Source: Bacilli bacterium
GTDB taxonomy: Bacteria; Bacillota_I; Bacilli_A; RF39; UBA660
DNA: 64,000 nt
Direction of reading: 5' to 3'
NCBI GenBank assembly: GCA_051872415.1
Contig: JBJEDW010000083.1
Coordinates: 750-64,749 of the forward strand
The notes beneath the pieces are model-generated. The model saw nothing but the letters and a program-made list of their open reading frames with translations, searched no databases and was not told the origin of the DNA. The stretch's first letter is position 1. Each line of letters begins with the position of its first letter. Positions 11,233 to 43,048 of the stretch are shown here, piece after piece. A program made the position numbers and the translations under genes.

Positions 11233-11234
11233 GT

Positions 11235-22074: not shown

Positions 22075-22096
22075 AAAAAGAGCGAAAATCGCTCTA
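22075..22096 (-). terminator. Intrinsic terminator of spoIVB
   Basis: AGAGCG-aaaat-CGCTCT hairpin overlapping the TAG stop. It is flanked by an A-run and a T-run, so it could act in both directions. Confidence 0.6.
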
Positions 22097-23071: not shown

Positions 23072-23477
23072 TTAATCAACTCCTTAAACAAACTACATTA
23101 TTATTATTAGCAAGATAATTTATTTTATATTATATAAAAATTGGTAAAAGTACATTTTGATTTTTTTGGTTAGTTAGATAATTTTTTTTAAAACTTAAAA
23201 TTAAAATTAGAACAAAAATAAACAATAAATTTAAATGAATTGACATCAATATATATTATATGTGTATTTTATTAGTAAATTTTTATATTAATAGTTGAGT
23301 TTGTTGTTAATTAATTATTTTAAAAAAGAATCATTTTTTTAGTTTTTATGAATTTGGTAAATGTTTCTTAGCATAAAACTTTAAAACATGTGAAAAGGAG
23401 CCATAAAGCTACGACTCCTTACTAGCTAATTTATCATATGAAAGTTTATTTATCTCAATTACTTGATAAAAGTCTTT

Positions 23478-28000: not shown

Positions 28001-28391
28001 AAGGCGAAATCATTAAATCTATACCGTAGTCATATTCTAACGCTTGTTTGTAATATTTACTATCGAGCTTTACAAACATATTCTTATAAGGAATACCATG
28101 CCAAACACTTATCCTTTTTTGAGAATTAGAAAATTTCGTAAAACCATTTATTGAACCAGCATCTATAATGTAATCAGCTGTGATTTTTAAATATTGAGCA
28201 TAAGAACACTTATTATTGACATATGTAACTTTATTTTTCTCTTTTAAATCATCTTCGTATTTGTCACAAATAATATATACTTTAAACTTATCTATATAAT
28301 AATTTATAAAATTTTCTATGTCACCCATCGCTTTATGGTTATATGCCGATGGAATTAAAACTAATTGTTTTTTATTATTTATTATTTTCAT
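25089..28391 (-). CDS. Trifunctional fusion: TagB/F-type CDP-glycerol glycerophosphotransferase + GT4 glycosyltransferase + GT2 glycosyltransferase
   Basis: Residues 1-345 fit the TagF family (WHGIPYK...LLYAPTFR...ITDYSSLFFDY). Residues ~350-700 are GT4-like (GGIHNF...; EGFPYIILEAYKYGIPV). A Lys-rich linker follows. Residues ~770-1000 are GT2 (VSIIMPFYNN...VLVINDGS...LDSDD). Confidence 0.8.
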   Translation of the reverse strand: MKIINNKKQLVLIPSAYNHKAMGDIENFINYYIDKFKVYIICDKYEDDLKEKNKVTYVNNKCSYAQYLKITADYIIDAGSINGFTKFSNSQKRISVWHGIPYKNMFVKLDSKYYKQALEYDYGIDLMISPSEFYTKNFLRDSMLYRGDVLETAVSRTDSLFLAKEQTNKIKEEIGIPKDKKILLYAPTFREEGVFELPFNASELIKKLPSDDWVIVTKLHYLNTLENSNNVIDATNYSTVNNLLAISDALITDYSSLFFDYSILKKPTIFYQYDKEQYEEDRGFMFELTDYVDEKYIVQNEDELYNLVEKIDKIKSNLEKIRKEFYPHQKKNSTEELVGKLNLDSTPRETKEIIFLVNELNQIGGIHNFVLNLAKGFKEKYNSKIIVIGKKEFIKKNDEVHFFDEENIIDIKLSKELNPKQTKQILENTDGYVIGCQFGAFMAMQQYLKNKKTLLMFHGDTEDVVKRNYYKTHLDTLNNYLVTNYMKLALLTKKNKEILSEHVNSDIKKKLTYIENGFDFTERKNFYKKNGEFVAVTRLDNDKNPEDLIKIFSNKNLNKNYKIHVYGDGGLKKDFENKIKELKVEDKVILHGYCDNKEEMYKDKQGLVMTSLTEGFPYIILEAYKYGIPVYSYDSFTAVSDLLNDKIGRKIKTGDIDEYVKVLNENFDIKNSDFDEFIEKFSNDNILKKWINLFSELDEEEQKLLELQKKTQPEKSLTLVTPKKVHKKLKKKKVKFKRRLLNSNSLKVSNLYIEISTLKFRIKKLFSRKKEPLVSIIMPFYNNNATIDKALKSIKKCGYKNYEVLVINDGSEENPQEICNKYKKVKYFYKKNEGPGLTRNFGIDHAKGEYVFFLDSDDEICKSSLNIMVDFALKEKLDVVCGLCRRVYVESKHTSYWYPLLYRKRKINEFPNREKVLDDSISTSKLYNLRELKKSNIRFAPGFYEDVLFMAEIYKYFPNIGYIPNVTYTWNIYGKDTSITTTITMENIYERIDKVNKIINISNENMKIQYMKIFINHHMYVLINNFNRYSEDKKKEIYNLIRKQLIDNKQYIYERIIYQPAKKSLIRIILDDNYNEFYKIAALISEEFFKVIKDLSSTIE

Positions 28392-29388
28392 GTTTCACCT
28401 CATTATGTTTAACATATCTCCAAGCATCTCGGCACATATCTTCTATAGTTAATTCAGATTCCCAGTTCAATTCTGTTTTTGCTTTATCAACATTCGCATA
28501 ACATTCAGCAATATCACCTTCACGTCTTGGTGCAAACTCATAATTAACCTTTACATTGTTTACCTTTTCAAAGGTTTTTATCATTTCAAGAACACTATAT
28601 CCATTACCTGTTCCAAGGTTGTAGATATTTACCCCTGGCTTTATATGATTAAGTGCCGAAATATGTCCTTTAGATAAATCACAAACATGTATATAATCTC
28701 TAACTCCTGTGCCATCTTTAGTATTATAATCATTACCAAAGATACTAACTTTTTCCCTCTTTTTAGTTGCTACATCCATTATAATTGGCATCAAGTTGTT
28801 TGGAATTCCATTTGGATCTTCGCCAATTATACCACTTTTGTGCGCTCCAACAGGGTTAAAATAACGTAATATTACTATTTCCATATTTTTGTTAGCTTTA
28901 CTATAATCTAATAACATATTTTCAATCATTAATTTTGTCCTTCCATATGGATTTAATACCCCTGTTTCTGATTTTTCATATAAAGGCATTTTTTTAGCAT
29001 TTCCATAAACCGTTGCGGAACTACTAAATATCAATTTATTAACAGAGAATTTTTTCATTATTTCTAATAAATAAATAGTGCTTATTAAATTGTTATCAAA
29101 ATATTCCAACGGATTATCCACTGACTCGCCTACAGCCTTCAAACCAGCAAAATGTATTACAGCATCAATCTTTTCTTTTTTAAATATATATTCTATTTTA
29201 TCTCTGTCTCGTAAATCATTTTCATAAAACCTAACTTTTTTTGAAGTTATTTTTTCTATTTTTTTTACTACATCAATCTTTGAATTTGATAAATTATCTA
29301 CAATAACTACTTCATGCCCCTCATTCATTAAATCAACACAAGTATGGCTTCCAATAAATCCAGTCCCTCCTGTTACTAAAATTGTCAT
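28375..29388 (-). CDS. galE: UDP-glucose 4-epimerase
   Basis: ILVTGGTGFIGSH Rossmann motif, SSSATVYG, and the YGRTK catalytic motif. ~337 aa. Confidence 0.9.
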   Translation of the reverse strand: MTILVTGGTGFIGSHTCVDLMNEGHEVVIVDNLSNSKIDVVKKIEKITSKKVRFYENDLRDRDKIEYIFKKEKIDAVIHFAGLKAVGESVDNPLEYFDNNLISTIYLLEIMKKFSVNKLIFSSSATVYGNAKKMPLYEKSETGVLNPYGRTKLMIENMLLDYSKANKNMEIVILRYFNPVGAHKSGIIGEDPNGIPNNLMPIIMDVATKKREKVSIFGNDYNTKDGTGVRDYIHVCDLSKGHISALNHIKPGVNIYNLGTGNGYSVLEMIKTFEKVNNVKVNYEFAPRREGDIAECYANVDKAKTELNWESELTIEDMCRDAWRYVKHNEVKHENNK

Positions 29389-29433: not shown

Positions 29434-29825
29434 TTATTTTTTTAAATCTTTTTTCAGTTTTGTTGTAGAAATTCCTTCAGTTCTATCTAAGTAAACCACT
29501 TTACAGAATTCTTTTAAATATTCAAATTTTTCACTACCTGCCCAATCGCTTCCCATAACTATTGTATCAACATTGTATTTTTTTACATCTGATAACTTTT
29601 GTTCCCAATTTTCCTCTGGTATGACTAAATCTACATATCTTATTGCTTCTAACATATATTTCCTAGTCTCGTAATCATAATATGTTGTTTTCCTTTCAAT
29701 TGATTGAATTCATTTGTGGAAAGTGCAACAATTAAGTAATCACCCATTTCTTTAGCTCTCTTTAACAATCTTATATGCCCATAATGAAGTAAATCATATG
29801 TACCGTAAGTTAGAATTGTCTTCAT
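29434..29825 (-). pseudogene. tagD: Glycerol-3-phosphate cytidylyltransferase interrupted by a 1-nt frameshift
   Basis: The N-terminal ORF (29825->29649) reads MKTILTYGTYDLLHYGHIRLL... and carries the HxGH motif. The C-terminal ORF (29655->29434) reads MLEAIRYVDLVIPEENW...RTEGISTT. Adding one A to the A4 run (plus-strand TTTT 29688-29691) gives a continuous product collinear with B. subtilis TagD as I recall it. Confidence 0.8.
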
Positions 29826-30162: not shown

Positions 30163-31179
30163 TTAAGAAACAAAAAATCTTTGGATAAATTTAAATATTT
30201 TTATTCTAAAAAAGTCAATTATAACACAAACTATAAAAACTGAAATAACTGAAATAATTAGATTAACAATGAATAACTTGTCTGTATAATAAGAGGAACA
30301 ATTGAATATTCCCTGCCATATATATTTTGATATAAAAGAATTCATGTGAATAATATATATAGAAAAAACAGATACAGAAAGTTTATTAATAACTTTATTA
30401 ACAATACTACTCTTTATGTTAAGTTTAGAAAAAAACAAGAAAAAACATACTGCTCCAATAATATTAAATAACGAATTATAGCCTAGAGTATTAAAAAACC
30501 TTTCATTTAAAAAATTAGAAAATGTTATAAACTGAGAAAACATAAATATAAGAAAATATAAACCAGCAGGTCTAGTATTAACCTTGTATTTGCAAATATA
30601 AGCACCAATAAAATATAAAACAATAAACATAGTTATACCATATCCATTATCCTTAACAGTACCAATTTGAAAAAATGTAGGAAGAATAGAAAAGAAAAAG
30701 AGCGTAATAATAATTAATGTTCTAAATTCTTTTCTGTTAATCTTTTCGATAAATCTATTTAAGTATGGAATAAGCAAGTACAAAATAACATATGTAATTA
30801 TAAACCAAGCACCACTATTTTTCATAAATAAAGCATCTGTAAATATCGAAATATCAAAAAGCTTAGGTTTAAACAGAACAACCCCTATTGTGATTGAAAA
30901 TAAATAAAAAAAGTAAATTAAAACAAGTTCTAAAATTCTTTTGCATTTTATTTTTTGTTTTTTGCACATAAAATAACCTGTTATAATAACAAAGCAATCT
31001 ACTGCTATTATAGAAAAGCTTTCAATAAACCTAGCTAAATAATAATTAAAATAACCTTCAGGAATATTTTTAACATCAAGTGCTCCTCCTAAAGAAACAC
31101 CTAAATAATGTAAACTAAGTACCATAATAATAAGTACAATTCTCAATAATTCAAAATTAGATTGACGCTCTTTTGTCAT
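30163..31179 (-). CDS. Acyltransferase family 3 membrane protein (putative polymer O-acetyltransferase)
   Basis: About 10 TM segments. The N-terminus RQSNFELLRIVLIIMVLSLHY is typical of acyltransferase-3 proteins. Confidence 0.75.
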   Translation of the reverse strand: MTKERQSNFELLRIVLIIMVLSLHYLGVSLGGALDVKNIPEGYFNYYLARFIESFSIIAVDCFVIITGYFMCKKQKIKCKRILELVLIYFFYLFSITIGVVLFKPKLFDISIFTDALFMKNSGAWFIITYVILYLLIPYLNRFIEKINRKEFRTLIIITLFFFSILPTFFQIGTVKDNGYGITMFIVLYFIGAYICKYKVNTRPAGLYFLIFMFSQFITFSNFLNERFFNTLGYNSLFNIIGAVCFFLFFSKLNIKSSIVNKVINKLSVSVFSIYIIHMNSFISKYIWQGIFNCSSYYTDKLFIVNLIISVISVFIVCVIIDFFRIKIFKFIQRFFVS

Positions 31180-31266: not shown

Positions 31267-32019
31267 TTAATCTAAATTTTTCATATATTCTTCATATTTG
31301 TCTACTATTTCTTCTGGATCACCATCACCTTTTAAAACACCATCATTTATCCAAATTACCCTATCGCAAAGACTTTTAAGAGTTCTAGAACTATGAGAAA
31401 CTATAATAACAGTTCTATTTTCATCAGAAATTAATTCCTTCATTTTATTATAACTTTTTTGTTGGAATCTAACATCTCCAACTGATAAAACTTCATCAAT
31501 AAGCATTATATCAGTTTCAAGAATTGCAGTTATTGCAAAAGCAAGTTTCGAATACATTCCAGATGAATAAGAGTTTACTGGCTTATAAATAAAATCGCCT
31601 AGCTCTGAAAATTCAATTATTTCATCTAACTTTTCATTTATTTGTTCTTCGCTATAACCAAGTAATAATCCTGAAAGAAATATATTCTCGTATCCTGATA
31701 ATCTTCTTTGAAAACCTACTCCTATTGAAAGAAGAGAAATGGTATTACCATGTAAATCAATTGTACCACTATCGGCTGAAAATATACCTGCGATGGCTCT
31801 TAGAAGCGTTGATTTACCACTACCATTTTTACCACAAATACCTAGAATTTGACCTTTAGGAATTTCAAAAGAAACATCTTTTACAGCATGAAATTCTTTA
31901 GCATTTAATAAATTTTTTATGCCTGACTTTACTAAAGAAAATTTTTTTATGTCTTTGTAATAGATATTTAAATTCTTTACAGTAACTGCTATTTCAGTTT
32001 TTTTCTTAGTTTTTTCCAT
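31267..32019 (-). CDS. tagH: Teichoic-acid/polysaccharide export ABC transporter ATP-binding protein
   Basis: Walker A GKNGSGKST, signature YSSGMYSKLAFA, Walker B MLIDEVLSVGD. Abuts the ABC-2 permease gene. Confidence 0.85.
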   Translation of the reverse strand: MEKTKKKTEIAVTVKNLNIYYKDIKKFSLVKSGIKNLLNAKEFHAVKDVSFEIPKGQILGICGKNGSGKSTLLRAIAGIFSADSGTIDLHGNTISLLSIGVGFQRRLSGYENIFLSGLLLGYSEEQINEKLDEIIEFSELGDFIYKPVNSYSSGMYSKLAFAITAILETDIMLIDEVLSVGDVRFQQKSYNKMKELISDENRTVIIVSHSSRTLKSLCDRVIWINDGVLKGDGDPEEIVDKYEEYMKNLD

Positions 32020-32819
32020 TATCGCATCACCTTTACATAAGTGTTTTCATATTTATAAATAGTCTTTATTCCAATATAAGATAGTACTAATCCTAAAATT
32101 ATCCAAATACTTAATAATAACAAATTAGGTGTTGTTTGATATATTAAAGCATCCCTAAAGAAAGATATTAAAGCTGCTAAGGGATTGTAATCTAGTAAAA
32201 TTTTATTGTATGGTTCTGGAACTCTAGTTGCAAGTGGGAAGAACACTCCAGACATATAAAATAACATCCTTAAAACAATTGGAACTATATTTTTTAAATC
32301 TTCAACAAAAACTCCGAAGTGCATAAGAATAGTAGCTATTCCAAAAGTAATAAGATACAAAGACATGTAGATTGGAATAAAGAAAAGAACATTCCAAGAA
32401 AGTGGTATTTGATATATAATCATACATATTACTACTAAACTAAATGAAATTAAAAACTTAACTGTATTAACAGACATTTTTGTAATTAATAAAATAAACT
32501 TTGGAACATATACTTTAATAACAGTATCACGATTAGCTCTTACTAAACTCACTGCTGAAGTAACTGTTCCTTGAAAGAAATTCCATGTTGTTAACCCAAT
32601 AAAGACAAAAACAGGAAAGTATTCAATTTTTGAATCAAAAACAACAAGCGCAATAAATGTGTAAATAAGCATGAAACAGATAGGATTTAAAAACAACCAA
32701 ATCCAGCTCAAATAGGATCCAGTAACTTCTGCTTTTAACTGAGACTTAGTAGAATAAGCAATGTATTTGGAATATTTTTTCAAATCATTTATAAATCTTT
32801 TTACCATTTTTATCATCAT
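32019..32819 (-). CDS. tagG: ABC-2-type polymer export permease
   Basis: Six TM segments, ~266 aa, and a TagG/Wzm-like layout. Its stop overlaps the tagH start. Confidence 0.8.
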   Translation of the reverse strand: MMIKMVKRFINDLKKYSKYIAYSTKSQLKAEVTGSYLSWIWLFLNPICFMLIYTFIALVVFDSKIEYFPVFVFIGLTTWNFFQGTVTSAVSLVRANRDTVIKVYVPKFILLITKMSVNTVKFLISFSLVVICMIIYQIPLSWNVLFFIPIYMSLYLITFGIATILMHFGVFVEDLKNIVPIVLRMLFYMSGVFFPLATRVPEPYNKILLDYNPLAALISFFRDALIYQTTPNLLLLSIWIILGLVLSYIGIKTIYKYENTYVKVMR

Positions 32820-33420
32820 CCTTTTTTATTTTGCTATTTTCATATTCTTTTGGAGTATTAAAATCTATTGTATTTTCGTCTACTATAACAAATTTTTTAC
32901 CAATCTGTTTCTTATCAAATTCTAATCCTGTAAATGATTGATATACTTGCCAACCTTTGCAATTTTTTATTTTACCTTCAAGAAACAAATTTCTCACTTT
33001 AGAAACATGTTCTTTAAATAATTTCCCATCTTTAATTTTTATAGCTACTATTGATTTTTTATTTCCAAAAAATAATATATCAAGAGCTTTTTTATTTATA
33101 ATTATATCAATAGTTTCATCTGGATAATATGTATCTCCATATAAGAAACAAATATTATCATCTATAAGTTCTTCTGTAAAACGATCTATTTCTAAAACGT
33201 TGTTAAGGGGTTCATATCTAGTAGCACCTTTTATTTCATATCTTTTATCATGAGATGTAATTATAATTTCACAATCTTTTTCTCTTTCATTTAATTGTCT
33301 TACGGTCCTTTTTATTAAAGGCTCGCCATTAATTGTAATAAAGTGTTTTGGAATATTGTTATAATTTTTCCAGCGTGTACCCTTACCATCACACATTATT
33401 ATATATTTCATATACATCAC
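32785..33420 (-). CDS. Putative nucleotidyltransferase (GT-A/NTP-transferase fold)
   Basis: N-terminus IIMCDGKGTRW resembles the G-x-G-T-R nucleotide-binding loop of sugar/alcohol-phosphate cytidylyl- and nucleotidyl-transferases. The rest is unrecognised. Confidence 0.45.
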   Translation of the reverse strand: MMYMKYIIMCDGKGTRWKNYNNIPKHFITINGEPLIKRTVRQLNEREKDCEIIITSHDKRYEIKGATRYEPLNNVLEIDRFTEELIDDNICFLYGDTYYPDETIDIIINKKALDILFFGNKKSIVAIKIKDGKLFKEHVSKVRNLFLEGKIKNCKGWQVYQSFTGLEFDKKQIGKKFVIVDENTIDFNTPKEYENSKIKKDDDKNGKKIYK

Positions 33421-34545
33421 CTAATTACTTATATTTTTCATTATATAGTCTACTATCAATTTTGTAGAATTACCTAAATTCTTTGGTAAATATTTCTTTC
33501 TAAACTTTTGATAAGATATATTATCGTAAGCATCATTTTTAATTATTTTAAATAAATCTTTGATATCTTTTGATGTACAAGTTGGAAGAACTTTTGTAGC
33601 ATCTAAATTTATACCATTCTCGCTCATATACTTATCATAATCATAAACATAAAAAAGAACTTTTTTGTTTAAAATTGCAGCTTCTAAACAAATTGATGAA
33701 TAATCCGTTATTACATAATCTGCTACTGTTAATAATTCAATATTTTTAAATTCTGGGCAATCATATATAACATCATGATTAAATTCAAGTGGTTGATTGG
33801 GATGCCCTCTTACAATAAGTATAAAATCATCTTTGTTATATTCTTTAAACATTTTAGTAGGTCCATCTACATTATATTTTCTAAAAGTTGGAACATAATA
33901 TACAATTTTTTTGTTTTTAAATTCTGGATATTTGTTTAATACTTCTTCTTTAAATTTATTCTCATTATTTAAAAGATAATCTATCCTAGGAAGTCCATAA
34001 TGTAACAAAACATCTTTTCTTACATTAAATCCAGCTTCATAAAATTCATCAAAAGCTGAACCTCCTGCTATTATATTGGTATAATTTTTATGCATACACA
34101 TAAGCTTTGCTATTTTACTATTTCTTCCAGAAACAGCATCCAAAGTCTGATAACCAGACTTTTTTATTTTACCAATAGAATGCCATATTTGCAAGACTAT
34201 TAAACTTTTTTTATGATTAAGAATGCAAACTGGTATACAATATGAATCAATAATTGCCATTTTAGATGTTGCTAAATACTTCATTTGTTTAATTATAATA
34301 AAAAAGTATTTTATATAACTTAATAATCCCTTATCTATTCTCTGACAAATAAATTTCATTTTTATACTAGAATCTCTTTTTTGTATTTCATCTCTTATCA
34401 TAGCAAAATCAATACTTATTTCATTAGTTTGTCTACTTATAAATACTATTTGCTTTTTATCTATTGGAAGTAACTTTAAAAAAAAGTATATAATTTTTAA
34501 AAAATATTTAAATGCCAAAATTAAAACAAATTTCATATAAATCAC
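33421..34545 (-). CDS. TagB/TagF-family CDP-glycerol glycerophosphotransferase
   Basis: WHSIGKIKK...YYVPTFR...ITDYSSICLEAAILNKKVLFYVYD matches family motifs and the N-terminal domain of the 1100-aa fusion. Confidence 0.75.
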   Translation of the reverse strand: MIYMKFVLILAFKYFLKIIYFFLKLLPIDKKQIVFISRQTNEISIDFAMIRDEIQKRDSSIKMKFICQRIDKGLLSYIKYFFIIIKQMKYLATSKMAIIDSYCIPVCILNHKKSLIVLQIWHSIGKIKKSGYQTLDAVSGRNSKIAKLMCMHKNYTNIIAGGSAFDEFYEAGFNVRKDVLLHYGLPRIDYLLNNENKFKEEVLNKYPEFKNKKIVYYVPTFRKYNVDGPTKMFKEYNKDDFILIVRGHPNQPLEFNHDVIYDCPEFKNIELLTVADYVITDYSSICLEAAILNKKVLFYVYDYDKYMSENGINLDATKVLPTCTSKDIKDLFKIIKNDAYDNISYQKFRKKYLPKNLGNSTKLIVDYIMKNISN

Positions 34546-34696: not shown

Positions 34697-36202
34697 TTAG
34701 TCTTTTTTTGTTATTATTTCTTTATTTTTATTGTAAATTTTTCTTTTTAATACTTTGAAAAAGTTATACTTTCTGATTATTAAAACTTTGTTTTTAGAAA
34801 TAGTAATCATCTTATTTTTTAAACGAATATATCTTTTTGTTAAATTAATTCTTTTATTATCAATAATAACACTTGGTTTATAAATAAGTTTGCTTTCATT
34901 AATAATTGAGTAAAATCCAAGCTTTGTTTCTTTTTTATCTAACTCTATCGAAGTGGAAAAACTTTTTACATTATTCATGTCATCTCCACAAAAAGATTTT
35001 CTATTTTTATCATTAAGAGGAGAAAGATTAACAGAATAAGTTTTGCCAATTGTATCAATATATAAATGATCTATAGGAAAGTAAATAGATGTTTTTATTG
35101 TTCCTTTTAAAGTTAGTTTATTTTTATTAAAGGACGTGCTTTCTATATTTAAATTATTTTTCCCATTTATTTCTCCGATTTCTTTGTCTTTGAAATAAAT
35201 TATGTTATTGACAAGTTTTAAATCTTTGTTTATTTCATTTTCATATTTTAACTTTAAAAGATATAATTTAGTATCTACTACTACTTTATTGGTATTTACT
35301 ATAACTTCATCATCTAATTGTTTAATTATCTTAATTAGGTTATTTTTATAATCTTTTTGGACATCAATTGGGATGTTAGAAGGAACTTCTTGCCCTACTC
35401 TATATTTTATAGCATTAATTAAGGCATACTCTATATAAGGAATTATCTTTTTATATTTTTTCTTTGAATAATCTATTAAAAATTCGTAATAATACTTAAC
35501 TGTATCAGTATAAGCTTCGATTGCTAAAGTCTTATTTTGAGTACTCGAAGAAGAATCAAATCTTTTTCTTATATGATAAACACAATCTTTAAATATTCCA
35601 TATTTTTCTTTTTCTAAAATAATTTGTGTTATATATTTAGCGTCTTCTGCATACTTCAATCTTTTATCAAATTGAAATTTTTTAGCAACATCACTCTTTA
35701 TAAAAGTTGAAGCAACACTCATTTGAATAAAATCTGGATTCTCATTAATAGAAATAACTCTATTACCATCATCGTATTTAAAATCTAATGAATGGACATT
35801 TTTTTTGTTTTCAAAATATTTTTGCCTACAACTAACCACATCTATTTCATTTTTATTTTTCTCAAAAAAAGCAAATACTTTTTCAAATGTATCTAAATCC
35901 CAAATATCATCACCATCAAAAAAGTTTATATATTTGCCATTTGCTAGACTTAATCCAACATTTCTAGCAGTAGATACTCCTTTATTTTCTTGTCTTTTAT
36001 AGATTACATTATCAGGATATAGTTTAAGATATTTTTCACAGATTTTTTCTGAATTATCACTACTTCCATCATTAATTAGAATTAGTTCAATATTTTCTTT
36101 AAATCCTATTGATTGATTTACAATTGAACTAAGAGCTTCGTCTAGAAATAATTCTAGATTATAAATTGGTACAATTACCGAAAAATTATATTTATATTTC
36201 AT
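34697..36202 (-). CDS. GT2-family glycosyltransferase with an extended C-terminal domain
   Basis: FSVIVPIYNLELFLDEALSSIVNQS...LINDGSSD...FFDGDD are canonical GT-A/GT2 motifs. Confidence 0.8.
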   Translation of the reverse strand: MKYKYNFSVIVPIYNLELFLDEALSSIVNQSIGFKENIELILINDGSSDNSEKICEKYLKLYPDNVIYKRQENKGVSTARNVGLSLANGKYINFFDGDDIWDLDTFEKVFAFFEKNKNEIDVVSCRQKYFENKKNVHSLDFKYDDGNRVISINENPDFIQMSVASTFIKSDVAKKFQFDKRLKYAEDAKYITQIILEKEKYGIFKDCVYHIRKRFDSSSSTQNKTLAIEAYTDTVKYYYEFLIDYSKKKYKKIIPYIEYALINAIKYRVGQEVPSNIPIDVQKDYKNNLIKIIKQLDDEVIVNTNKVVVDTKLYLLKLKYENEINKDLKLVNNIIYFKDKEIGEINGKNNLNIESTSFNKNKLTLKGTIKTSIYFPIDHLYIDTIGKTYSVNLSPLNDKNRKSFCGDDMNNVKSFSTSIELDKKETKLGFYSIINESKLIYKPSVIIDNKRINLTKRYIRLKNKMITISKNKVLIIRKYNFFKVLKRKIYNKNKEIITKKD

Positions 36203-36214: not shown

Positions 36215-37345
36215 TTAATTATTTACTGGAAGTTCCCATTTTTCATTTGTTTTATTTTCTTTTTTCAACTTTTTGTAATTAATTAGTTTTTCTAAGTCTT
36301 TTCTTTTTCCACCTTCATCAGTTATTTGTTGTCCTAAAAACTGAGTTTTTCCATTTCCTTCAACTATCAGAGGATTACCATCTTTATCAATAGCAACATC
36401 CCATCCAATATACCTAGTTTTATCAAAAGCAAGTGCAGCATCTTTTGCCAAAGAAACTGCTTTTTCCCAAGATGGAATTTTAAAACCTTTTATTTTAATA
36501 TTTGTATCAGGATGATACTCGTAAACAGTATTATTTTCATCTTTGCCATCTGTTATTAATTCTCCTGTTTCAGGATTTATTCTAGCAAACATTCCTCCTG
36601 CTCCACCATTATCTACAAATGAAGAACCACGACCAATTTTTATAAATGGAAGATGAATAAAAACTTGATCATTTTCATCTCGATAAGTAACAATTCTTAA
36701 AGTATTTAAAGATTCTGGGTGTAGAGAAGCCATTTTTTCATGCTGAATAATTCTTTCTTCTAAAATGACATCTCCATCTTCTAGTAAATAAGAGAACAAA
36801 GTTTTTGGGTTTTTAAAGTCTTTGCTATCAATTAATTCAATTCCCTTTCCAAAAGAAGAGTCAATAGGTTTTTTAACGAAAACTGGATATTTTTTTATAA
36901 ACTTTTGAAATTCAGTATAATTATTCTCACCAATTTTTATTAATTCTCTTTTATAAAATTTCTTTAATATTTCATAAGATTTATATTTATCGTTTAAAAT
37001 TTCTTGTCCTTCTTTTTCTCCAAGTAAATATAAATAATTTTGTCTGTTCATATTAGCAATAAAATTTTTTCTTTTAAAATGGCACTTATTCTTAAAACCA
37101 AATAGAAAATATTCTTTAAAAGATAAATTATAAAAGACACGGCAATAGATCATATCTTTTTTTAAGCGTTTTTTATCTTTTTTAGAAAGATTAAAAGATT
37201 TTGTATATTTTTCTATTGTTTCTTCCACTATTTCTTTTCTTTTTTTTGTAGATAATCTATACAAACTATCAAAAACTATTGGTTTAAATAGTATTGATTT
37301 TTGTGCTAATTTAGTGAGAAATTCTCGTTTTTCTTTTCTTGTCAT
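36215..37345 (-). CDS. ATP-grasp enzyme (sugar-transfer-associated clade)
   Basis: Motifs KKPIDSSFGKGIELI; LEERIIQHEKMASLHPESLNTLRIVTY; GRGSSFVDNGGAGGMFARINPETGEL; HPDTNIKIKGFKIPSW; IVEGNG. All are shared with two paralogs in this window. Confidence 0.75.
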   Translation of the reverse strand: MTRKEKREFLTKLAQKSILFKPIVFDSLYRLSTKKRKEIVEETIEKYTKSFNLSKKDKKRLKKDMIYCRVFYNLSFKEYFLFGFKNKCHFKRKNFIANMNRQNYLYLLGEKEGQEILNDKYKSYEILKKFYKRELIKIGENNYTEFQKFIKKYPVFVKKPIDSSFGKGIELIDSKDFKNPKTLFSYLLEDGDVILEERIIQHEKMASLHPESLNTLRIVTYRDENDQVFIHLPFIKIGRGSSFVDNGGAGGMFARINPETGELITDGKDENNTVYEYHPDTNIKIKGFKIPSWEKAVSLAKDAALAFDKTRYIGWDVAIDKDGNPLIVEGNGKTQFLGQQITDEGGKRKDLEKLINYKKLKKENKTNEKWELPVNN

Positions 37346-37359
37346 ACTTCAAACTCTCC

Positions 37360-39363
37360 TTACTTAATTTCATTGAAAGATATATTATTTTCTTTGGCAA
37401 AAAAGGCGGCATAAGATTCTTTTTTACCATAAATAACAACGTTTTTACTATTTTTAAAGGCATGTTTGTCGATTGTTTGTACTGTCTCAGGTATAACTAC
37501 TTTATTTAAATTTTTGCATTCTGCAAAAGCAAACTGTTCTATGTATATTAATGAATTAGGCAAAATAACTTCTTTTAGATTATCACAATTATAAAATGAT
37601 TTTTCTCTTATTCCTTTTAGTTTACTATTAAATGTCACTTTTTCTAAAGAACTACTATCAAAAGTTCTAGGCTTTATAACTGATAAGTTTTTAGGCAGTA
37701 TTATTTCTTTTATATTTTTATCATTTAAAAACAGTTCTCGTTTTAATTTAGTTACATTTTTTCCTTCTAATACACTAGGAACTACTATTTTTTTATCTTT
37801 TTTCAGGCATTTAGTCACTGTGATTTGACATGGGAAATTATAAAACTCATAATCTTTTTCTGTTACTATTTTATAATCAGCTTCTCCAATATTAACTGCA
37901 TCACTCATATCTGTACCAAAAAGCATATCAATACTATCAGTTAAATGCATTCCATGTGAACCTTTAAATAAAATAAGATCTCCAGGCTTTATTATTTTTT
38001 CAATATAATCGTGCATCTTTTCTCTGTTTTCAAAATATTTAACATTCTTTTTTATATTTTTATATTTCTCATAGGAATATTTTGTTTCATTTCCAAAAAA
38101 TATCATTTCTTGAATATCATGACCTGCTAAATTCTTTCCAATTTTACGATGAATTTCTTCAGAAATCTCTCCCATTTCTTTTACATCTGCAATTACTGCA
38201 ATTTTTTTAGAATTTTTGTCCAGTTTTATAATATCAAGAGTTTTAGCAGCTGTTTCTATTGAATCAAGCGAAGCATTATAACAATCTGCAAAAATTTTAT
38301 ATTCCCCAACTTGAAATAAGTTATCTCTCATACCTGTTGTATGATAATTTATTAAACCTTTTTTTATTTTTGAAGAATCAATTTTTAAATATTTAGCAAG
38401 GGCATATGCAGCTAAGGCATTATATATATGATGTTCCCCTATTACCTTTAGTTTTATCTCTTCTTCATTTTTTTCTAAATTATCAACTACCGTAAAAGTT
38501 GTACCTTCGGCAGTTAACTTTATATTTTTTGCATAATACATTGCATTCTGATCTTTTATCGAATAAGATATAACTTCTTGTTCAAATTCTAAGTTTCTAA
38601 GTACTGAATCATCATAATTTATGATAGCAAGTCCGTCTTTTTTTCCATATTTTGAAAGCAATGTCTTGTATTTAGCGATATTTTCACGAGTCTTATAGTG
38701 TTCTATATGAGAATCTAAGATATTAGTATAAATAGCTATATTAGCCTCAAGCATAAGAGCACATTCTTTTATTAAAAATTTAGATGCTCCAATTCCTACT
38801 TCTTGAAGATAAACTTTATTAAAATAATTAAGTTTTTTTATATTCATAGCAATCTTAAAATGAGAATTACTATTTCCTTGAGATACAACTAAAGCATTCT
38901 TTTTATACTCTTCTCTTAATACAGAGGCAATAATATCTTTAGTTGAAGTTTTTCCGATTGATCCGGTTACTGTTATTACATAAGGATTTGAAACTTTTCT
39001 AATATAAATCATAACTTTTGAAAACTGATGTAAGTTTTTAGTAATCACAATATTATTACAGTTTTCTATTGGTTCTTCTGAAAATATACATAATGCATTT
39101 TCTTTAATTTTCTTTCTTGTTGGTTCATCAAAGCCATTTAAGGTTCGACAGAACATAACAAAATTAGGTTCTATTTCTAACCTACTTCTTGTTATATTAG
39201 TTACTCTTTTATTTTGCAATTTTTTTAAATTACTGGGAACTTCTACATCGATAATATTACATATTTTCTTTAAAGTTAACTTTTTCTTATTATCAAATGC
39301 TCTCTTTTTTAAATTTATAATAAACTTTTTAATAGGTTGTGGAACATACTTTTTTAAACTCAT
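37360..39363 (-). CDS. MurF-like Mur-ligase-family protein fused to a C-terminal BspA-type leucine-rich-repeat domain
   Basis: P-loop VTGSIGKTSTKD, MurF-like FADCYNAS, and a C-terminal ligase domain (DVKEMG...). Residues ~520-667 are LRR units (EIILPKNLSVIKPRTF / EVILPNSLIYIEQFAFAECKNL / VVIPETVQTIDKHAF). No signal peptide. Confidence 0.75.
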   Translation of the reverse strand: MSLKKYVPQPIKKFIINLKKRAFDNKKKLTLKKICNIIDVEVPSNLKKLQNKRVTNITRSRLEIEPNFVMFCRTLNGFDEPTRKKIKENALCIFSEEPIENCNNIVITKNLHQFSKVMIYIRKVSNPYVITVTGSIGKTSTKDIIASVLREEYKKNALVVSQGNSNSHFKIAMNIKKLNYFNKVYLQEVGIGASKFLIKECALMLEANIAIYTNILDSHIEHYKTRENIAKYKTLLSKYGKKDGLAIINYDDSVLRNLEFEQEVISYSIKDQNAMYYAKNIKLTAEGTTFTVVDNLEKNEEEIKLKVIGEHHIYNALAAYALAKYLKIDSSKIKKGLINYHTTGMRDNLFQVGEYKIFADCYNASLDSIETAAKTLDIIKLDKNSKKIAVIADVKEMGEISEEIHRKIGKNLAGHDIQEMIFFGNETKYSYEKYKNIKKNVKYFENREKMHDYIEKIIKPGDLILFKGSHGMHLTDSIDMLFGTDMSDAVNIGEADYKIVTEKDYEFYNFPCQITVTKCLKKDKKIVVPSVLEGKNVTKLKRELFLNDKNIKEIILPKNLSVIKPRTFDSSSLEKVTFNSKLKGIREKSFYNCDNLKEVILPNSLIYIEQFAFAECKNLNKVVIPETVQTIDKHAFKNSKNVVIYGKKESYAAFFAKENNISFNEIK

Positions 39364-39379
39364 TTTCTTTTCTCCTTTA

Positions 39380-40444
39380 CTATTTTATCAAATTATGATA
39401 TCTATAAAAATCTCCAAGAGGTTTATTCTTTTGTCCGCCCCAAAGCTGAAGTATATTAACACCAGAAGAGGCATTTGCTTCAATAATACAGATTCCTTTG
39501 TCAGTTAAAAGCACATCCCAAGCTACAAAGTTTAAATATGGGAATTTATTGGCTAAGTCTACAATTTCTTTTTTTATTTTATCCCAGTTAGGAACTTTAA
39601 CTCCTTCGATAGGATTTTTGCTATCAGGATGAATTTTGTATTCATTAGTATTATGTAAACATTTAGCACTGCTAAGCTTACCAGTTTCTAAATCAACCTT
39701 AGCAACTAAACCACCCATACTACCATTATCTACAGGTATAGTTTTCTTTGTTCCTATTCTTTGAACTGCAAAATAAAGTATAAATTTTTCAGTTTTTGGA
39801 TCTTTAAAAGTAACAAGTCTTAAAGTATTTGAAGTTTTGTCATATAACTTATTCAAATACTCATTTTGCTCTATACTTTCACATATGAAATAGTTTTTTT
39901 CACGTTCAAAGTAATTAATTATTTCATCTTTGGTAGTTTCTTTTTCATTTAAATAATATTTTTTATCTTTGTAAGCAAAAGTTGCTATTCCATTTCCTTT
40001 ACCACTATCGATTGGTTTTGAAAATAATTTTTTTTGTTTTTCTAAAAGTTTTACTATATCTTCAGGAGTACTTATATCATAATCAAAACTAGAAATAGCC
40101 TTATTTTGCTTTAAACAATATATAGTAGGAACATATACATATTGCTTTAATAGTTCAGTAGTCACAATTTTATTATTTAAAATAAACTTATAGTTTCCAT
40201 TTATATATCTTGATTTATACCAATCAAATTCAGATAAATATTCCTTCTTTCTCTTGCTATTCAAGTCATACAAAACAACTTGATCTGCAATGTAACCACC
40301 ATTTATATTCCAATATAGTCTTTTAAAGAAAGGAACTTTCATATGAGATTTAGCAAATAAAATACGAACTATCCATAAAAGAGCAAGTCTTGCTTTTCTT
40401 CCTAAATAATCATTAATTCTGCGTAAAGTTTTCATTATTATCAC
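39380..40444 (-). CDS. ATP-grasp enzyme (paralog 2)
   Basis: Motifs SKPIDSGKGNGIATF; ICESIEQNEYLNKLYDKTSNTLRLVTF; GTKKTIPVDNGSMGGLVAKVDLETGKL; HPDSKNPIEGVKVPNW; IIEANA. Confidence 0.75.
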   Translation of the reverse strand: MIIMKTLRRINDYLGRKARLALLWIVRILFAKSHMKVPFFKRLYWNINGGYIADQVVLYDLNSKRKKEYLSEFDWYKSRYINGNYKFILNNKIVTTELLKQYVYVPTIYCLKQNKAISSFDYDISTPEDIVKLLEKQKKLFSKPIDSGKGNGIATFAYKDKKYYLNEKETTKDEIINYFEREKNYFICESIEQNEYLNKLYDKTSNTLRLVTFKDPKTEKFILYFAVQRIGTKKTIPVDNGSMGGLVAKVDLETGKLSSAKCLHNTNEYKIHPDSKNPIEGVKVPNWDKIKKEIVDLANKFPYLNFVAWDVLLTDKGICIIEANASSGVNILQLWGGQKNKPLGDFYRYHNLIK

Positions 40445-42826
40445 CTATTTCTCCCTACGATCTATAAATTTAAATAATTTATGTGGCATACGTTTATCGT
40501 AACCATATTTTTTCTTTTTTTCTTCTACTTTTCCTAATAAGTATTCTATTGAATGAGGTTTTAATCTTCCTATTTTCATATAATCTGGATAACGATTTAT
40601 TTCTGGAAATTTCATTCCATCTTCAGTTATAGCTATATCAAAACCAAAGTATTCAATTTGTTTTAGAGACTCTGCTATTTCTAAGATATCTTTTACAACT
40701 TTATCCCAATTTGGTATGTAACCTTCTATTGGCAAATGTGTATCCGGGTGCTCTTTGCAAGGAACTATTTTTAAATCATCTGTTATTATCAAAGCATCAT
40801 GAAAGAATCCTGTTTCTTCATCTAAACTTACAAATATTCCACCAGCTCCTATATTATCAACAGTACCAGTCTTTTTTGAACCAAAACGCATATAAGCATT
40901 ACCGATAATCGGAGTTTTACCATCTTTTTTAAACACAATTATTCTGATAGTATTAACTGAACCATCATAAATTTTATTTAATACATCATGTTGTTTGATA
41001 TATTCAGTTACTAAATACTCGTTAGTTTTATCAGATAAAATATCAATTACATCTTCTCGAGTTGCTTCTTTAAGATTAAGATATAATTTGTTATCTTTAT
41101 ATGAAAGTCTATAAAATCCTTCCCCATGAGAACCCTTATCACGTTTTAAAGCTATGTCCTTTTCTTTTTTTACAAGATTTATAATATCATCATAAGTATT
41201 ACCATAACCCCTAGGACAATCCATCATAGGAATTATTTGATTTTCTCCTTGTTTTAAACTAATATAATAATAATACTTAGGAAAGAATTTATTGTAATCA
41301 CTTGCAATATATTTAATAGTTATCTTATCCTCAAACCAAATTTTATAATAATTGTTTATGTGTCTTAACCATTTATACTCAAAATCTGAAATAAAGTTTT
41401 TATAATTATCTTTTGTTATATTATATTGTGCTAATCTATATGAAAGAAAGCCGTGTCTATAAGCCCAAAGTTTAGTTCTAATAGGAATATTCTTATTTTC
41501 TATAAAATCATCTTTCATATCCCTTAACCATCTAAAACTTATATAAGGTACTAATCCTTTTGGATAACAAGTCTTAGCAAATAATTTACATAACTTTAAC
41601 CAAACCTTTTTTTTGAAGATTTTTAATTTAAATTTAGTATTTTTATAAAGATCTCGTTTATGATTATATTTATAAATTAAAAAATTATTAAAATCTTTAT
41701 CAAAAGGCACCGCTGTACAATACTCAGGATTATTAAATATATTTATTATCTTTATTTCCTTATCGGTTATTGTAAGTTCTACTCCTGCCATTTCTATTTG
41801 AGGAATAGTTTTAAATATTGACTTAATTAATTCATTAATCTTATCAAAGTTTTTTTCTACCAAAGCAATCAATTTATCATTATTTGGCATTTTTTCTGAT
41901 TTTGTTATTTTTTTACCATTTTTTGTGGTGCAAATCTTAAATTTACCATCACTGGCATTGAAATAAATACGCGATTTTTTATTTTTATCTAAGTTAATGC
42001 TTTTGTGATTTTGGTCATCGTCATTTTCCAAAACTTGTTCATCATTTGTAGCTTCAACATTAAATTCATTATCAATTATATATTTACCATTGACTTCGGC
42101 ATATATTTCTCCAATAAGTGGCTCTAGACCATTTTTATTATATACTTTTAAAAATAGTTTAGCTTCTTTTCCATTTAATAATAATGATTTATTAGGTTTA
42201 ACTTTTTCTCGTAACACTAAACTTGTTACATTCTTTGCATTTCTTTTTATATAATTATCAATTTTTTCAATAGAAGACTCTTTTCCATTCATAAAAAACT
42301 TGTTATTTTTATATTCTAGTAAATCTTTGCTAGTATAATCTGAAGACATTAATATAACACTTTTTTTACTTTTTATTAGCTCGTAAAAACTTTCTTTATC
42401 ATCTTTTAAATTTTCTCTTAAAGATACAATCTTTACTTTACCATCACGTAAATATAATTGATAATAAACCTCTACTAAGTTTTTTCTATAATTTTTTAAT
42501 ATTTTATCAGTAGTAACAATATCTGCTAACCATTTATTATATTTTCCGTTAACACCATAAAGATAAAGATATTGTTTATAGGAAATATTTTCTTTTCTAT
42601 TATATTTAGTTATGTTTAGAGTTTTTACCTGATTAGGCAAATAACCATAGTAATAGGATTTTAGCTTAAATAGAATTGATGAACCATTATTTTTAAAAAA
42701 ATCTTCTATTACTTCTGATTTCCATTTTATAGCTGCTCTTACAACATAACCATTATATATCATACGAGAAGAAATCAAAGCTAAGAGTCGCCTTTTTATT
42801 TTACTGTTATCTTTCATTAATATCAC
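40445..42826 (-). CDS. Double-module ATP-grasp protein (degenerate N-terminal module, intact C-terminal module)
   Basis: The C-terminal half carries RDKGSHGEGFYRL; VTEYIKQHDVLNKIYDGSVNTIRIIVF; GSKKTGTVDNIGAGGIFVSLDEETGFF; HPDTHLPIEGYIPNW. The N-terminal half has similar length and spacing but lacks the VDN..GG and G-x-G loops. GTG 42826 abuts the xseB stop; ATG 42817 with AGGTGA upstream is an alternative start. Confidence 0.7.
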   Translation of the reverse strand: MILMKDNSKIKRRLLALISSRMIYNGYVVRAAIKWKSEVIEDFFKNNGSSILFKLKSYYYGYLPNQVKTLNITKYNRKENISYKQYLYLYGVNGKYNKWLADIVTTDKILKNYRKNLVEVYYQLYLRDGKVKIVSLRENLKDDKESFYELIKSKKSVILMSSDYTSKDLLEYKNNKFFMNGKESSIEKIDNYIKRNAKNVTSLVLREKVKPNKSLLLNGKEAKLFLKVYNKNGLEPLIGEIYAEVNGKYIIDNEFNVEATNDEQVLENDDDQNHKSINLDKNKKSRIYFNASDGKFKICTTKNGKKITKSEKMPNNDKLIALVEKNFDKINELIKSIFKTIPQIEMAGVELTITDKEIKIINIFNNPEYCTAVPFDKDFNNFLIYKYNHKRDLYKNTKFKLKIFKKKVWLKLCKLFAKTCYPKGLVPYISFRWLRDMKDDFIENKNIPIRTKLWAYRHGFLSYRLAQYNITKDNYKNFISDFEYKWLRHINNYYKIWFEDKITIKYIASDYNKFFPKYYYYISLKQGENQIIPMMDCPRGYGNTYDDIINLVKKEKDIALKRDKGSHGEGFYRLSYKDNKLYLNLKEATREDVIDILSDKTNEYLVTEYIKQHDVLNKIYDGSVNTIRIIVFKKDGKTPIIGNAYMRFGSKKTGTVDNIGAGGIFVSLDEETGFFHDALIITDDLKIVPCKEHPDTHLPIEGYIPNWDKVVKDILEIAESLKQIEYFGFDIAITEDGMKFPEINRYPDYMKIGRLKPHSIEYLLGKVEEKKKKYGYDKRMPHKLFKFIDRREK

Positions 42827-43048
42827 CTATTCTTTTATATTAAAGTCTTCTAATTGTCCTTCTTTATTTAGTGCTTTGGTAATTGTTTCATTAGCATTTT
42901 CTAAAATTTCATTACAACTATTTGCAAGTTTCATACCTTCGCTCCATTTATTAATTGCATCATCAAGTGCAACATCACCATTTTCTAAATCTTTTACTAT
43001 TTTTTCTAATTTTTCTAACTGTTTTTCAAATGTATTTTTATTTTCCAT
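42827..43048 (-). CDS. xseB: Exodeoxyribonuclease VII small subunit
   Basis: 73 aa with FEKQLEKLEKIVKDLENGDVALDDAI, the typical XseB helical hairpin. Overlaps the xseA stop. Confidence 0.85.
   Translation of the reverse strand: MENKNTFEKQLEKLEKIVKDLENGDVALDDAINKWSEGMKLANSCNEILENANETITKALNKEGQLEDFNIKE

Follow-up and report, generated by a model that had tools for sequence, protein, structure and literature searches.

Why should a locus for a teichoic acid-type polymer carry a whole set of ATP-dependent ligases? This question is raised by a 64,000 nt stretch of DNA (termed the window; contig JBJEDW010000083.1 of assembly GCA_051872415.1, positions 750 to 64,749) from an uncultured gut Bacilli bacterium of the RF39 lineage. 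On its minus strand, between positions 36,215 and 42,826, lie genes for three ATP-grasp proteins and a MurF-like Mur ligase, in a locus that also encodes TagF-type phosphotransferases and a TagG/TagH-like polymer exporter. An earlier note, made from the sequence alone, had proposed that these ligases decorate a wall polymer with amino acids or short peptides independently of the ribosome. We consider there to be about an even chance that, as sequence comparisons suggest, the block provides the ligases of a teichoic acid-type pathway, in which amino acids or peptides would be ligated onto or into the polymer in the cytoplasm, at the expense of ATP, before export.

A block of ATP-grasp and Mur ligases

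Minus-strand open reading frames (ORFs) are present at the coordinates that the earlier note had given for the ligase block:

40445..42826, minus strand: 793-amino-acid (aa) tandem ATP-grasp protein (Pfam ATPgrasp_ST 134.0 bits, residues 487-749 only)
about 41507-42826, minus strand: N-terminal half of the 793-aa protein, a degenerate ATP-grasp pseudo-module
40445-41506, minus strand: C-terminal half of the 793-aa protein, an ATPgrasp_ST module with its motifs intact
39380..40444, minus strand: 354-aa ATPgrasp_ST ligase, a member of the four-gene core described below (Pfam 150.4 bits)
37360..39363, minus strand: MurF-like three-domain Mur ligase with a C-terminal LRR_5 domain (Pfam and NCBIfam matches)
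37894-39363, minus strand: Mur ligase part of this gene
37360-37893, minus strand: BspA-type LRR_5 domain of this gene
36215..37345, minus strand: 376-aa ATPgrasp_ST ligase, the third active module, encoded by an insert gene (Pfam 179.8 bits)

The GC content is ~25% throughout the window, and the genes of the block lie close together, either overlapping or separated by 0-16 nt. All of the motifs that the earlier note had read as one ordered series occur in the translations of the three ATP-grasp genes, and pairwise BLASTP comparisons (E = 2e-26, 8e-20 and 7e-42) place their paralogy, by sequence similarity, far beyond chance. Their assignment to the 'sugar-transfer-associated ATP-grasp' clade, which the note had made, is borne out by Pfam family ATPgrasp_ST (PF14397), for which the gathering threshold is 31.4 bits. 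The Mur ligase flanked by ATP-grasp genes likewise carries the motifs TGSIGKTSTKD and DCYNAS in its translation, and its best NCBIfam match is murF. The note had named profile searches, and structure prediction followed by a structural search, as ways of checking these assignments. When these were carried out, ATPgrasp_ST, Mur_ligase_M, Mur_ligase_C and LRR_5 were all detected, and Foldseek comparisons of the models returned an ATP-grasp fold for the 793-aa protein and a MurF-type fold for the Mur ligase.

For both the 793-aa and the 376-aa protein, NCBI has entries with 100% identity. The NCBI model of the former is 790 aa in length, and the true start is probably the ATG at 42817, which is preceded by an AGGTGA Shine-Dalgarno sequence, rather than the GTG at 42826.

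Three ATP-grasp modules are predicted to be active

The lysine and glycine-rich phosphate loop, the hinge glutamate, the arginine and the D...E-x-N triad are retained in the 376-aa protein, the 354-aa protein and the C-terminal half of the 793-aa protein. An alignment of 41 homologues has as invariant residues K561, the G-loop, E608, T626/R628, D657-N658...G662-G663, H693-P694-D695, D730, E742 and N744. From these motifs, all three modules appear to be catalytically intact.

Among the three ATP-grasp proteins, the 793-aa protein was modeled with AlphaFold2 (AF2). The model (predicted local distance difference test score, pLDDT, 86.8; predicted template-modeling score 0.86) presents the same order of strands and helices twice. 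In Foldseek searches it is matched across both modules by carbamoyl-phosphate synthetase, an enzyme that has two ATP-grasp modules, and also by D-Ala:D-Lac ligase, RimK, Ddl and LysX (probability 1.0, E about 1e-5).

The N-terminal half of this protein (~residues 1-440) has no Pfam match of its own, and lacks the Lys/Gly phosphate loop, the E-x-I-x-Q hinge, N-T-x-R, VDNxGAGG, HPD and the Mg-binding E-x-N pair. Nevertheless, it is an internal duplicate of the C-terminal half (tblastn E = 5e-19), and an exhaustive phmmer search with it retrieves active ATPgrasp_ST modules of other proteins. That it might be a different domain was rejected on a comparison of motifs, the AF2 model, phmmer and tblastn, which together identify a degenerate copy. 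Its counterpart in a distant relative (locus L171, below) also lacks the nucleotide- and Mg-binding motifs. The dead module is 27-31% identical to its orthologues in Clostridia, compared with 55-62% for the active half, and thus appears to diverge much faster.

The four ATP-grasp modules counted in the earlier note are therefore best described as three putatively competent ligases, each with its nucleotide- and metal-binding residues in place, and one pseudo-module that is a true duplicate but has lost all of them. Because of this loss, the block could perform at most four ligations, rather than the 'up to 4-5' that had been suggested.

A conserved four-gene core in other genomes

Homologues of the 793-aa protein are abundant (40-45% identity over 97-100% of the length), and their surroundings tie the ligases to wall-polymer genes. 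We compared loci from other genomes (designated L and a number). In 6 of 6 distant contexts examined (L087, L088, L089, L170, L171 and L172) there is a four-gene core composed of a TagF-like gene, an ~350-aa ATPgrasp_ST gene, a small nucleotidyltransferase gene and an ~750-aa double ATP-grasp gene. Three of these contexts (L087, L088 and L089) are metagenome contigs with sporulation genes nearby, L170 is from the cultured isolate Anaerostipes sp. 992a, where the core lies at about 308-313 kb on contig MJIG01000003.1 of assembly GCA_001940245.1, and L172 is from an Anaerovoracaceae metagenome-assembled genome (MAG). Conservation of the core is strong across Lachnospiraceae, Anaerovoracaceae and Bacilli.

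The window holds all four core genes. Between the 354-aa ATP-grasp gene and the TagF-like gene is a three-gene insert, consisting of the Mur ligase gene, the 376-aa ATP-grasp gene and a glycosyltransferase family 2 (GT2) gene. The members of the core and insert that lie outside the ligase block are as follows:

34697..36202, minus strand: GT2 glycosyltransferase, insert gene (Pfam Glycos_transf_2 6e-33; syntenic in L090)
33421..34545, minus strand: TagB/TagF-type CDP-alditol phosphotransferase, core gene (Pfam Glyphos_transf 6e-51)
32785..33420, minus strand: small GxGTR nucleotidyltransferase of 211 aa, IspD/TarI/LicC-like, core gene (weak IspD and NTP_transf_3 matches)

Sequence matches of the TagF-type protein in the PDB are Cps3D, TarL and TagF, and those of the nucleotidyltransferase are TarI- and LicC-like proteins. 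Between the window and the distant cassettes, identities are 40-43% for the TagF-like protein, 53-55% for the ~350-aa ATPgrasp_ST protein and 53-62% for the active ATP-grasp modules. The ~195-aa nucleotidyltransferase is 63-66% identical in five loci and 53% identical in L171, where it makes up the N-terminal part of a 933-aa fusion with the double ATP-grasp (10001-12802), whose middle module is again degenerate. The values for the nucleotidyltransferase and the active ATP-grasp modules are unusually high.

TagG and TagH genes directly follow the core in four of the six contexts, and in all four an LCP-family gene comes next by tblastn (Pfam marks three of these). In Anaerostipes, a Bac_transf initiating transferase gene precedes the core. 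The minimal cassettes lack TagD, such that the small nucleotidyltransferase is the sole activating enzyme there. The link that the earlier note had drawn between these ligases and a TagF/TagGH wall-polymer pathway is thereby reproduced in distant genomes, where the same ATP-grasp proteins occur beside TagF-like, TagG, TagH and LCP proteins. None of the six core cassettes has a Mur ligase and, because the conserved core does without one, the Mur ligase appears to be an optional add-on to the core system.

A MurF-like ligase with a leucine-rich repeat tail

The product of the gene at 37360-39363 (termed MurF-LRR, for its leucine-rich repeats) matches Mur_ligase_M (1e-33), Mur_ligase_C (3e-14) and LRR_5 (2e-26). 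An AF2 model of the Mur ligase (pLDDT 91.8) superimposes on Acinetobacter baumannii MurF (4qf5) with a template-modeling (TM) score of 0.85 and a root-mean-square deviation of 3.3 Å over 470 columns, N domain included, and in Foldseek MurE and MurC are structurally farther from the model than is MurF. Invariant in 20 family members are the P-loop, E188, H219, K233, N249/D251, GxHN (G309...N315), R346, D360-x-Y362-N363 and K467 (KGSH). Both the predicted fold and the catalytic motifs are therefore intact.

Four lines of evidence set MurF-LRR apart from MurF. Its score of 216.7 bits on the MurF model TIGR01143 is below the cut-off of 288.6, as are those of all LRR-bearing ligases (216-235 bits); four relatives, three LRR-bearing and one fused to a Peptidase_S11 domain, score 223-235 bits. 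The N-terminal Mur_ligase domain (PF01225) was not detected in the window ligase, whereas it was detected in canonical MurFs by the same search. MurE and MurF share a motif, DSR/DTR ... GxRFDGH, that marks binding of the UDP-substrate. Of the sequences aligned, none of the 16 LRR-bearing members has the GxRFDGH part, but 16 of the 17 canonical MurFs keep it; the window sequence at this site reads ITRSR...RTLNGFDE. Finally, the LRR-bearing ligases form one clade separate from canonical MurF in a neighbor-joining tree built without bootstrap. For these reasons we argue that the protein is not an equivalog of MurF. It also does not belong with two other groups of Mur ligase relatives, since no PgsB model matched, and the cyanophycin synthetase model gave only 47.6 bits, a level of generic Mur-ligase similarity.

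The Mur-LRR_5 architecture is found in about one hundred 90%-identity clusters, mostly from uncultured Firmicutes, but also from Selenomonas sp. KH1T6. Because MurF-LRR has no signal peptide or transmembrane segment, its BspA-type LRR is predicted to be cytoplasmic, which is unusual. In the window, its gene lies between ATP-grasp genes in a TagGH operon rather than with murE/mraY or ddl.

Genomic contexts of MurF-LRR and ATPgrasp_ST

The earlier note had suggested looking for co-occurrence of this ATP-grasp clade with MurF-like ligases and TagGH, and the result is divided: ATPgrasp_ST and MurF-LRR genes occur together in the TagGH loci L004 and L090, but the core cassettes do without a Mur ligase. 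When genome contigs were scanned with the full Mur-LRR alignment, the generic P-loop and NYDD patterns brought up ordinary MurF genes in overwhelming numbers; only L007 and L043 were useful, and the species of the window itself was not retrieved.

The expanded gene order of the window is kept in L090 (52-92% identity) and, in a shorter version, in L091, and an orthologue of the 376-aa ATP-grasp gene adjoins MurF-LRR in L090, L091 and L004. The order in L004 is TagD, TagF-like, an ~610-aa protein, MurF-LRR, PGA_cap, 376-type ATP-grasp, PGA_cap, 354-type ATP-grasp, TagG and TagH, with SpoIVB (3813-4784) just upstream of the locus. In the window, SpoIVB (Peptidase_S55) lies on the minus strand in the stretch 22094-24680, just downstream of the wall-polymer locus, past its 3′ end; the same stretch includes a 400-aa ORF (23478-24680, minus strand) that matches no Pfam family. 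SpoIVB neighbors both loci while their contents differ, which suggests that the chromosomal site is constant and that the wall-polymer genes occupying it vary.

Other loci depart further from this arrangement. L006 has a double ATP-grasp gene, a 354-type ATP-grasp gene, MurF-LRR and the ~610-aa protein gene, with no TagGH, TagF or nucleotidyltransferase gene nearby. The ~610-aa proteins of L004 (8145-9968) and L006 (12004-13848) are 47% identical, and others occur in L162-L164 beside Mur-ligase and ATP-grasp genes. They match no Pfam family, but an SCGIDS motif recalls PP-loop ATP pyrophosphatases, and they may be another ATP-using partner of the module. A homologue was sought in the window and not found.

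In the diderm Selenomonas sp. KH1T6 (L002, GCA_900108415.1, 629-15016), what appears to be an accessory peptide-building cluster encodes an AMP-binding enzyme, a 1309-aa multi-ATP-grasp ATPgrasp_ST protein, an AAT-family protein, an ATPgrasp_ST+PGA_cap fusion, a hexapeptide acyltransferase, MurF-LRR, Ddl and a MurF-like ligase fused to a DD-carboxypeptidase (Peptidase_S11). The order in L005 (6279-16802) is LCP, Ddl, aldo-keto reductase, a 912-aa MurF-LRR, glutamate racemase and a 1017-aa MurF-LRR; the two MurF-like paralogs have long N-terminal extensions and adjoin these D-amino-acid supply genes. L114 carries PGA_cap, MurF-LRR and Ddl genes. More distant Mur ligases (~26% identical) have ATPgrasp_ST, PGA_cap and ~610-aa protein genes as neighbors in L160-L169.

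The wall-polymer locus in the window

Downstream of the core, the locus continues with the following genes:

32019..32819, minus strand: TagG-like ABC-2 permease (tblastn to the ABC2_membrane genes of L004 and L088; weak Wzm match)
31267..32019, minus strand: TagH-like ATP-binding cassette (ABC) ATPase (best NCBIfam matches are teichoic acid export ATPases, 215/204 bits, below equivalog cut-offs)
30163..31179, minus strand: Acyl_transf_3 membrane O-acyltransferase (Pfam 1e-25)
29434..29825, minus strand: TagD-like glycerol-3-phosphate cytidylyltransferase, frameshifted (two ORFs; tblastn in two frames)
28375..29388, minus strand: GalE, UDP-glucose 4-epimerase (TIGR01179 454.7 bits, cut-off 262.3)
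25089..28391, minus strand: 1100-aa protein with TagF-type phosphotransferase, GT4 (Glycos_transf_1) and GT2 domains (Pfam)

The TagF-type domain of the last protein is the second Glyphos_transf domain in the window (3e-58). Thus the co-directional neighbors that the earlier note had named (a GT2, two TagB/F domains, a GT4, TagG/TagH, an acyltransferase-3 and GalE) are all recovered by profiles or tblastn. Its statement that dlt and non-ribosomal peptide synthetase (NRPS) genes are missing also holds: among window ORFs of at least 90 aa, and by tblastn, we found no dlt, NRPS, LCP, Ddl, PGA_cap or glutamate racemase gene. PgsC, or an exporter other than TagGH, was not found in the window either.

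Elsewhere in the window (9319-11232, minus strand), a 637-aa LtaS-type sulfatase-family protein is encoded. Because of this protein, it is suggested that the organism also makes lipoteichoic acid independently of the locus studied here.

A possible route for amino acid ligation

ATP-grasp and Mur ligases convert a carboxylate into an acyl-phosphate, which is then coupled to an amine, or rarely to a hydroxyl or thiol. Because ATP is needed and the ligases have no signal or transmembrane segments, all ligations are predicted to be cytoplasmic and to precede TagGH export. In the route that we favor, TagF-type enzymes and glycosyltransferases would build a glycosylated poly(alditol-phosphate) on the cytoplasmic face, from CDP-activated units supplied by TagD and/or the small nucleotidyltransferase and from UDP-hexoses supplied through GalE. 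Each ATP-grasp ligase would activate a carboxylate as an acyl-phosphate and join amino acids through an amide, or possibly an ester, to the repeat unit or its CDP-activated precursor. The additional ATP-grasp and the MurF-like ligase might then lengthen this substituent in the manner of Ddl and MurF, by adding a further residue or a preformed dipeptide at a free carboxylate. The dead N-terminal ATP-grasp copy and the LRR tail would be non-catalytic and might provide a scaffold, a pseudo-dimer partner or a docking surface. TagGH would flip the finished aminoacylated or peptidylated polymer, the Acyl_transf_3 protein would O-acylate it, and an LCP protein encoded elsewhere would anchor it to the wall.

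An extension of this scheme, which we put forward as a long shot, is a peptido-teichoic acid. The MurF-like ligase would add D-Ala-D-Ala or another dipeptide to a peptide built by the ATP-grasp ligases on the teichoic repeat unit, and the resulting end, which would resemble a peptidoglycan stem, could let penicillin-binding proteins cross-link the polymer into the wall or trim it off. Hints in this direction are the clustering of MurF-LRR relatives with Ddl, glutamate racemase and a Mur-ligase/DD-carboxypeptidase fusion, and the lack of an LCP gene in the window, unlike in the minimal cassettes. If true, this would be a second ribosome-independent peptide assembly line feeding the cell envelope.

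A number of observations weigh against the proposal that the block ligates amino acids to a teichoic acid-type polymer. The locus has no obvious pathway for a carboxylate-bearing acceptor (e.g. a uronic acid) and no amino acid supply genes (racemase, Ddl). A frameshift of one base within a run of A (~29,680-29,690) divides the TagD-like gene into two ORFs, of 58 aa and 73 aa; this may be a homopolymer assembly error or a real or phase-variable pseudogene, and it bears on the supply of CDP-glycerol. LCP, TagO and TagA genes were not found in the 64-kb window, although linkage-unit and LCP genes could lie elsewhere in the genome. Scanning for promoters and terminators yielded counts equal to those of shuffled controls in this 25% GC DNA, so no operon boundaries were gained. 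A phmmer search of the PDB with the 354-aa ATP-grasp protein found no relative by sequence, and in the literature we found no experimental work on ATPgrasp_ST members, the four-gene core or MurF-LRR.

The partnership of the two ligase families is also loose. Most MurF-LRR genes of the metagenome scan are solitary, with no ATP-grasp gene within 10 kb; these solitary genes belong to a large human-gut clade (L001, L092-L113). In L043, a Bacilli MAG, a lone ATPgrasp_ST gene (6196-7203) sits between trigger factor (tig) and lon among housekeeping genes, with a canonical LRR-less MurF gene 2.5 kb downstream and an Amidoligase_2 gene upstream. Because of this gene, ATPgrasp_ST does not appear always to be tied to glycopolymer loci; together with the solitary MurF-LRR genes, it indicates that the pairing, as judged from these contexts, is recurrent but not obligatory.

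Other explanations for the ligase block

The evidence from the core can be turned toward a different product. The core ATP-grasp proteins might build an amide-containing phospho-alcohol or phospho-acid, which the nucleotidyltransferase would convert to a CDP derivative for polymerization or transfer by the TagF-like protein. The amide would then lie within the repeat unit, and MurF-LRR and the third ATP-grasp would merely be optional extenders. The strict adjacency of the TagF-like, ATP-grasp, nucleotidyltransferase and double ATP-grasp genes in all six distant loci, and the fusion of the nucleotidyltransferase to an ATP-grasp protein in L171, favor this explanation; indeed, these features fit a role of the ATP-grasp proteins in making a CDP-monomer equally well. 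In minimal cassettes lacking TagD, the small nucleotidyltransferase alone can provide activation, its high conservation suggests a specific small-molecule substrate, and its nearest solved relatives are alditol-phosphate and phosphocholine cytidylyltransferases. We nevertheless regard monomer synthesis as an unlikely, if serious, alternative. The frameshifted TagD-like gene and the second TagF domain of the window fit an ordinary glycerol-phosphate backbone, L006 has the ATP-grasp pair with no TagF or nucleotidyltransferase gene nearby, and we can name no substrate for such a pathway.

The MurF-like ligase invites another explanation, in which MurF-LRR serves as MurF itself or as an alternative to it, with UDP-N-acetylmuramic acid-peptide as substrate, the ATP-grasp proteins make alternative dipeptides or cross-bridge residues, the block as a whole remodels the stem or bridge of peptidoglycan, and the location in a teichoic acid locus reflects the clustering of cell-wall genes. 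The complete MurF fold with its N domain (TM 0.85), the retention of all catalytic motifs and the rank of murF as by far the top-scoring hidden Markov model for this ligase all agree with this. So do the relatives beside Ddl, glutamate racemase and a DD-carboxypeptidase fusion, which are classic partners in peptidoglycan precursor synthesis, and the large solitary clade in gut Clostridia, of which NCBI calls one member MurF. Yet a score of 216.7 bits where 288.6 are required, shared in kind by all LRR-bearing relatives, the loss of an N-domain motif that nearly all canonical MurFs keep, and the separate clade, albeit in a tree without bootstrap, all point away from MurF function. Furthermore, MurF-LRR is wedged between ATP-grasp genes and the GT2 gene of a TagGH operon in both the window and L090, and in the diderm Selenomonas it belongs to an accessory cluster. 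A role in peptidoglycan synthesis is therefore improbable in our view. We find it still harder to credit that the product is free or separately exported (a poly-gamma-glutamate-like, cyanophycin-like or small peptide not covalently joined to the TagGH polymer). PGA_cap (CapA-like) genes or fusions do accompany MurF-like and ATPgrasp_ST genes in L002, L004, L114 and L160-L164, no TagGH genes are near the L006 or Selenomonas clusters, and the nearest structural relatives of the ATP-grasp protein are RimK-like and Ddl-like enzymes. But PGA_cap, PgsC and any exporter other than TagGH are missing from the window, the ligase genes interrupt the TagF/TagGH string in the window, L090 and L004, the core ATP-grasp genes are linked to TagF-like genes in every distant locus examined, and the resemblance of the Mur ligase to PgsB and cyanophycin synthetase models does not go beyond generic similarity.

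Relation to known ligase systems

One of the closest functional parallels to the proposed teichoic acid ligases is the pair of Ddl and MurF in peptidoglycan precursor synthesis, where an ATP-grasp enzyme likewise works with a MurF-type three-domain ligase through acyl-phosphate chemistry; the MurF catalytic residues are shared, and relatives of MurF-LRR adjoin Ddl. The window system differs in that its ATP-grasp proteins belong to ATPgrasp_ST rather than the Ddl family, its Mur ligase falls below the MurF cut-off, lacks the N-domain motif and has an LRR_5 tail, and its genes are located in a TagF/TagGH operon and not in a dcw cluster. RimK and LysX are, with Ddl and VanA, the closest solved folds, and they add amino acids stepwise to a carboxylate. 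Although the RimK-related glutamate ligase TIGR02291 is the best NCBIfam match of the ATP-grasp proteins, the scores are 38-58 bits versus a cut-off of 314, and the protein and carrier-protein substrates of RimK and LysX have no encoded counterpart in the window. Ribosome-independent amide polymerization by Mur-ligase-family and/or ATP-grasp enzymes is also known from PgsBCA/CapBCA and cyanophycin synthetase (PgsB and the CphA1 M domain being of the Mur ligase family), and PGA_cap genes lie near relatives of the window module. The window itself has neither PGA_cap nor PgsC, and its Mur ligase is MurF-like, with the low cyanophycin synthetase score and absent PgsB match given above.

Precedents within surface-polymer loci exist. 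The C-terminal domain of Campylobacter jejuni Cj1438, a TupA-like ATP-grasp amidoligase, uses ATP to amidate the C6 carboxylate of glucuronic acid with serinol phosphate or ethanolamine phosphate (PMC11800379). For TupA-like enzymes in general, the addition of amino acids to surface polymers has been predicted (PMC12632600). Such an ATP-grasp enzyme belongs to a surface-polymer locus and forms an amide bond on a growing glycan within the cytoplasm. However, TupA-like proteins belong to PF14305, which none of the three window proteins matches at E <= 0.01, whereas the window proteins match PF14397/PF14398 only. Unlike the Cj1438 system, the window locus has no uronic acid pathway but several ligases and a Mur ligase, and its polymer would be a Gram-positive, TagGH-exported phosphate polymer rather than a capsule. 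A possible link to CA_C2195/DUF4910 (PMC4000134) was also considered and proved unrelated to the locus.

The association of ATPgrasp_ST with surface polysaccharides has been predicted before: it is contained both in the name that Pfam gives the family and in the annotation of the window protein at NCBI. The family definition and the general idea reportedly go back to Iyer et al. in 2009. To our knowledge, extracytoplasmic D-alanylation by Dlt is the only established route for placing amino acids on teichoic acids. The expected outcome of the window system, amino acids on a teichoic acid with altered wall charge, is similar to that of DltABCD, but the means are different. DltABCD forms esters by way of an adenylating enzyme, a carrier protein and a transfer step outside the cytoplasm, whereas the window encodes putative cytoplasmic acyl-phosphate ligases that would act before export, and has no dlt genes.

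If the proposed function is correct, a cytoplasmic ATP-grasp/Mur-ligase route would be a second way to put amino acids on teichoic acids. The wall polymers of common gut Firmicutes (among them Lachnospiraceae such as Anaerostipes, Anaerovoracaceae and uncultured Bacilli) would then bear amide-linked amino acids or peptides, with consequences for surface charge, recognition by phages and antibodies and innate immune sensing, and two uncharacterized families, ATPgrasp_ST and MurF-LRR, would gain a function. A MurF paralog within a teichoic acid operon is itself a sign of wall chemistry that has yet to be explored. Among gut Firmicutes the core is widespread, and because it is compact and present in a cultured isolate the hypothesis is directly testable.

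Other features of the window

Immediately upstream of the ligase block is a further short gene:

42827-43048, minus strand: 73-aa ORF, read as xseB on the basis of its sequence and its location behind xseA

The stop codon of this ORF directly adjoins the first ATP-grasp gene. Because no intergenic gap is left for a promoter, transcription of the locus may run through from nusB-xseA-xseB. Upstream of nusB, a 613-aa secreted protein (44851-46692, minus strand) that combines a polysaccharide deacetylase domain with several SH3_3 repeats is presumably cell-wall-modifying. At the other end of the window (33-7791, plus strand) are Tad-type pilus genes (TadE-like, a ParA/TadZ-like ATPase, T2SSE and two T2SSF). 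Beyond these lie genes for a sortase and for a 687-aa SpaA-repeat protein that contains a thioester domain, such that two different surface-fiber systems are adjacent.

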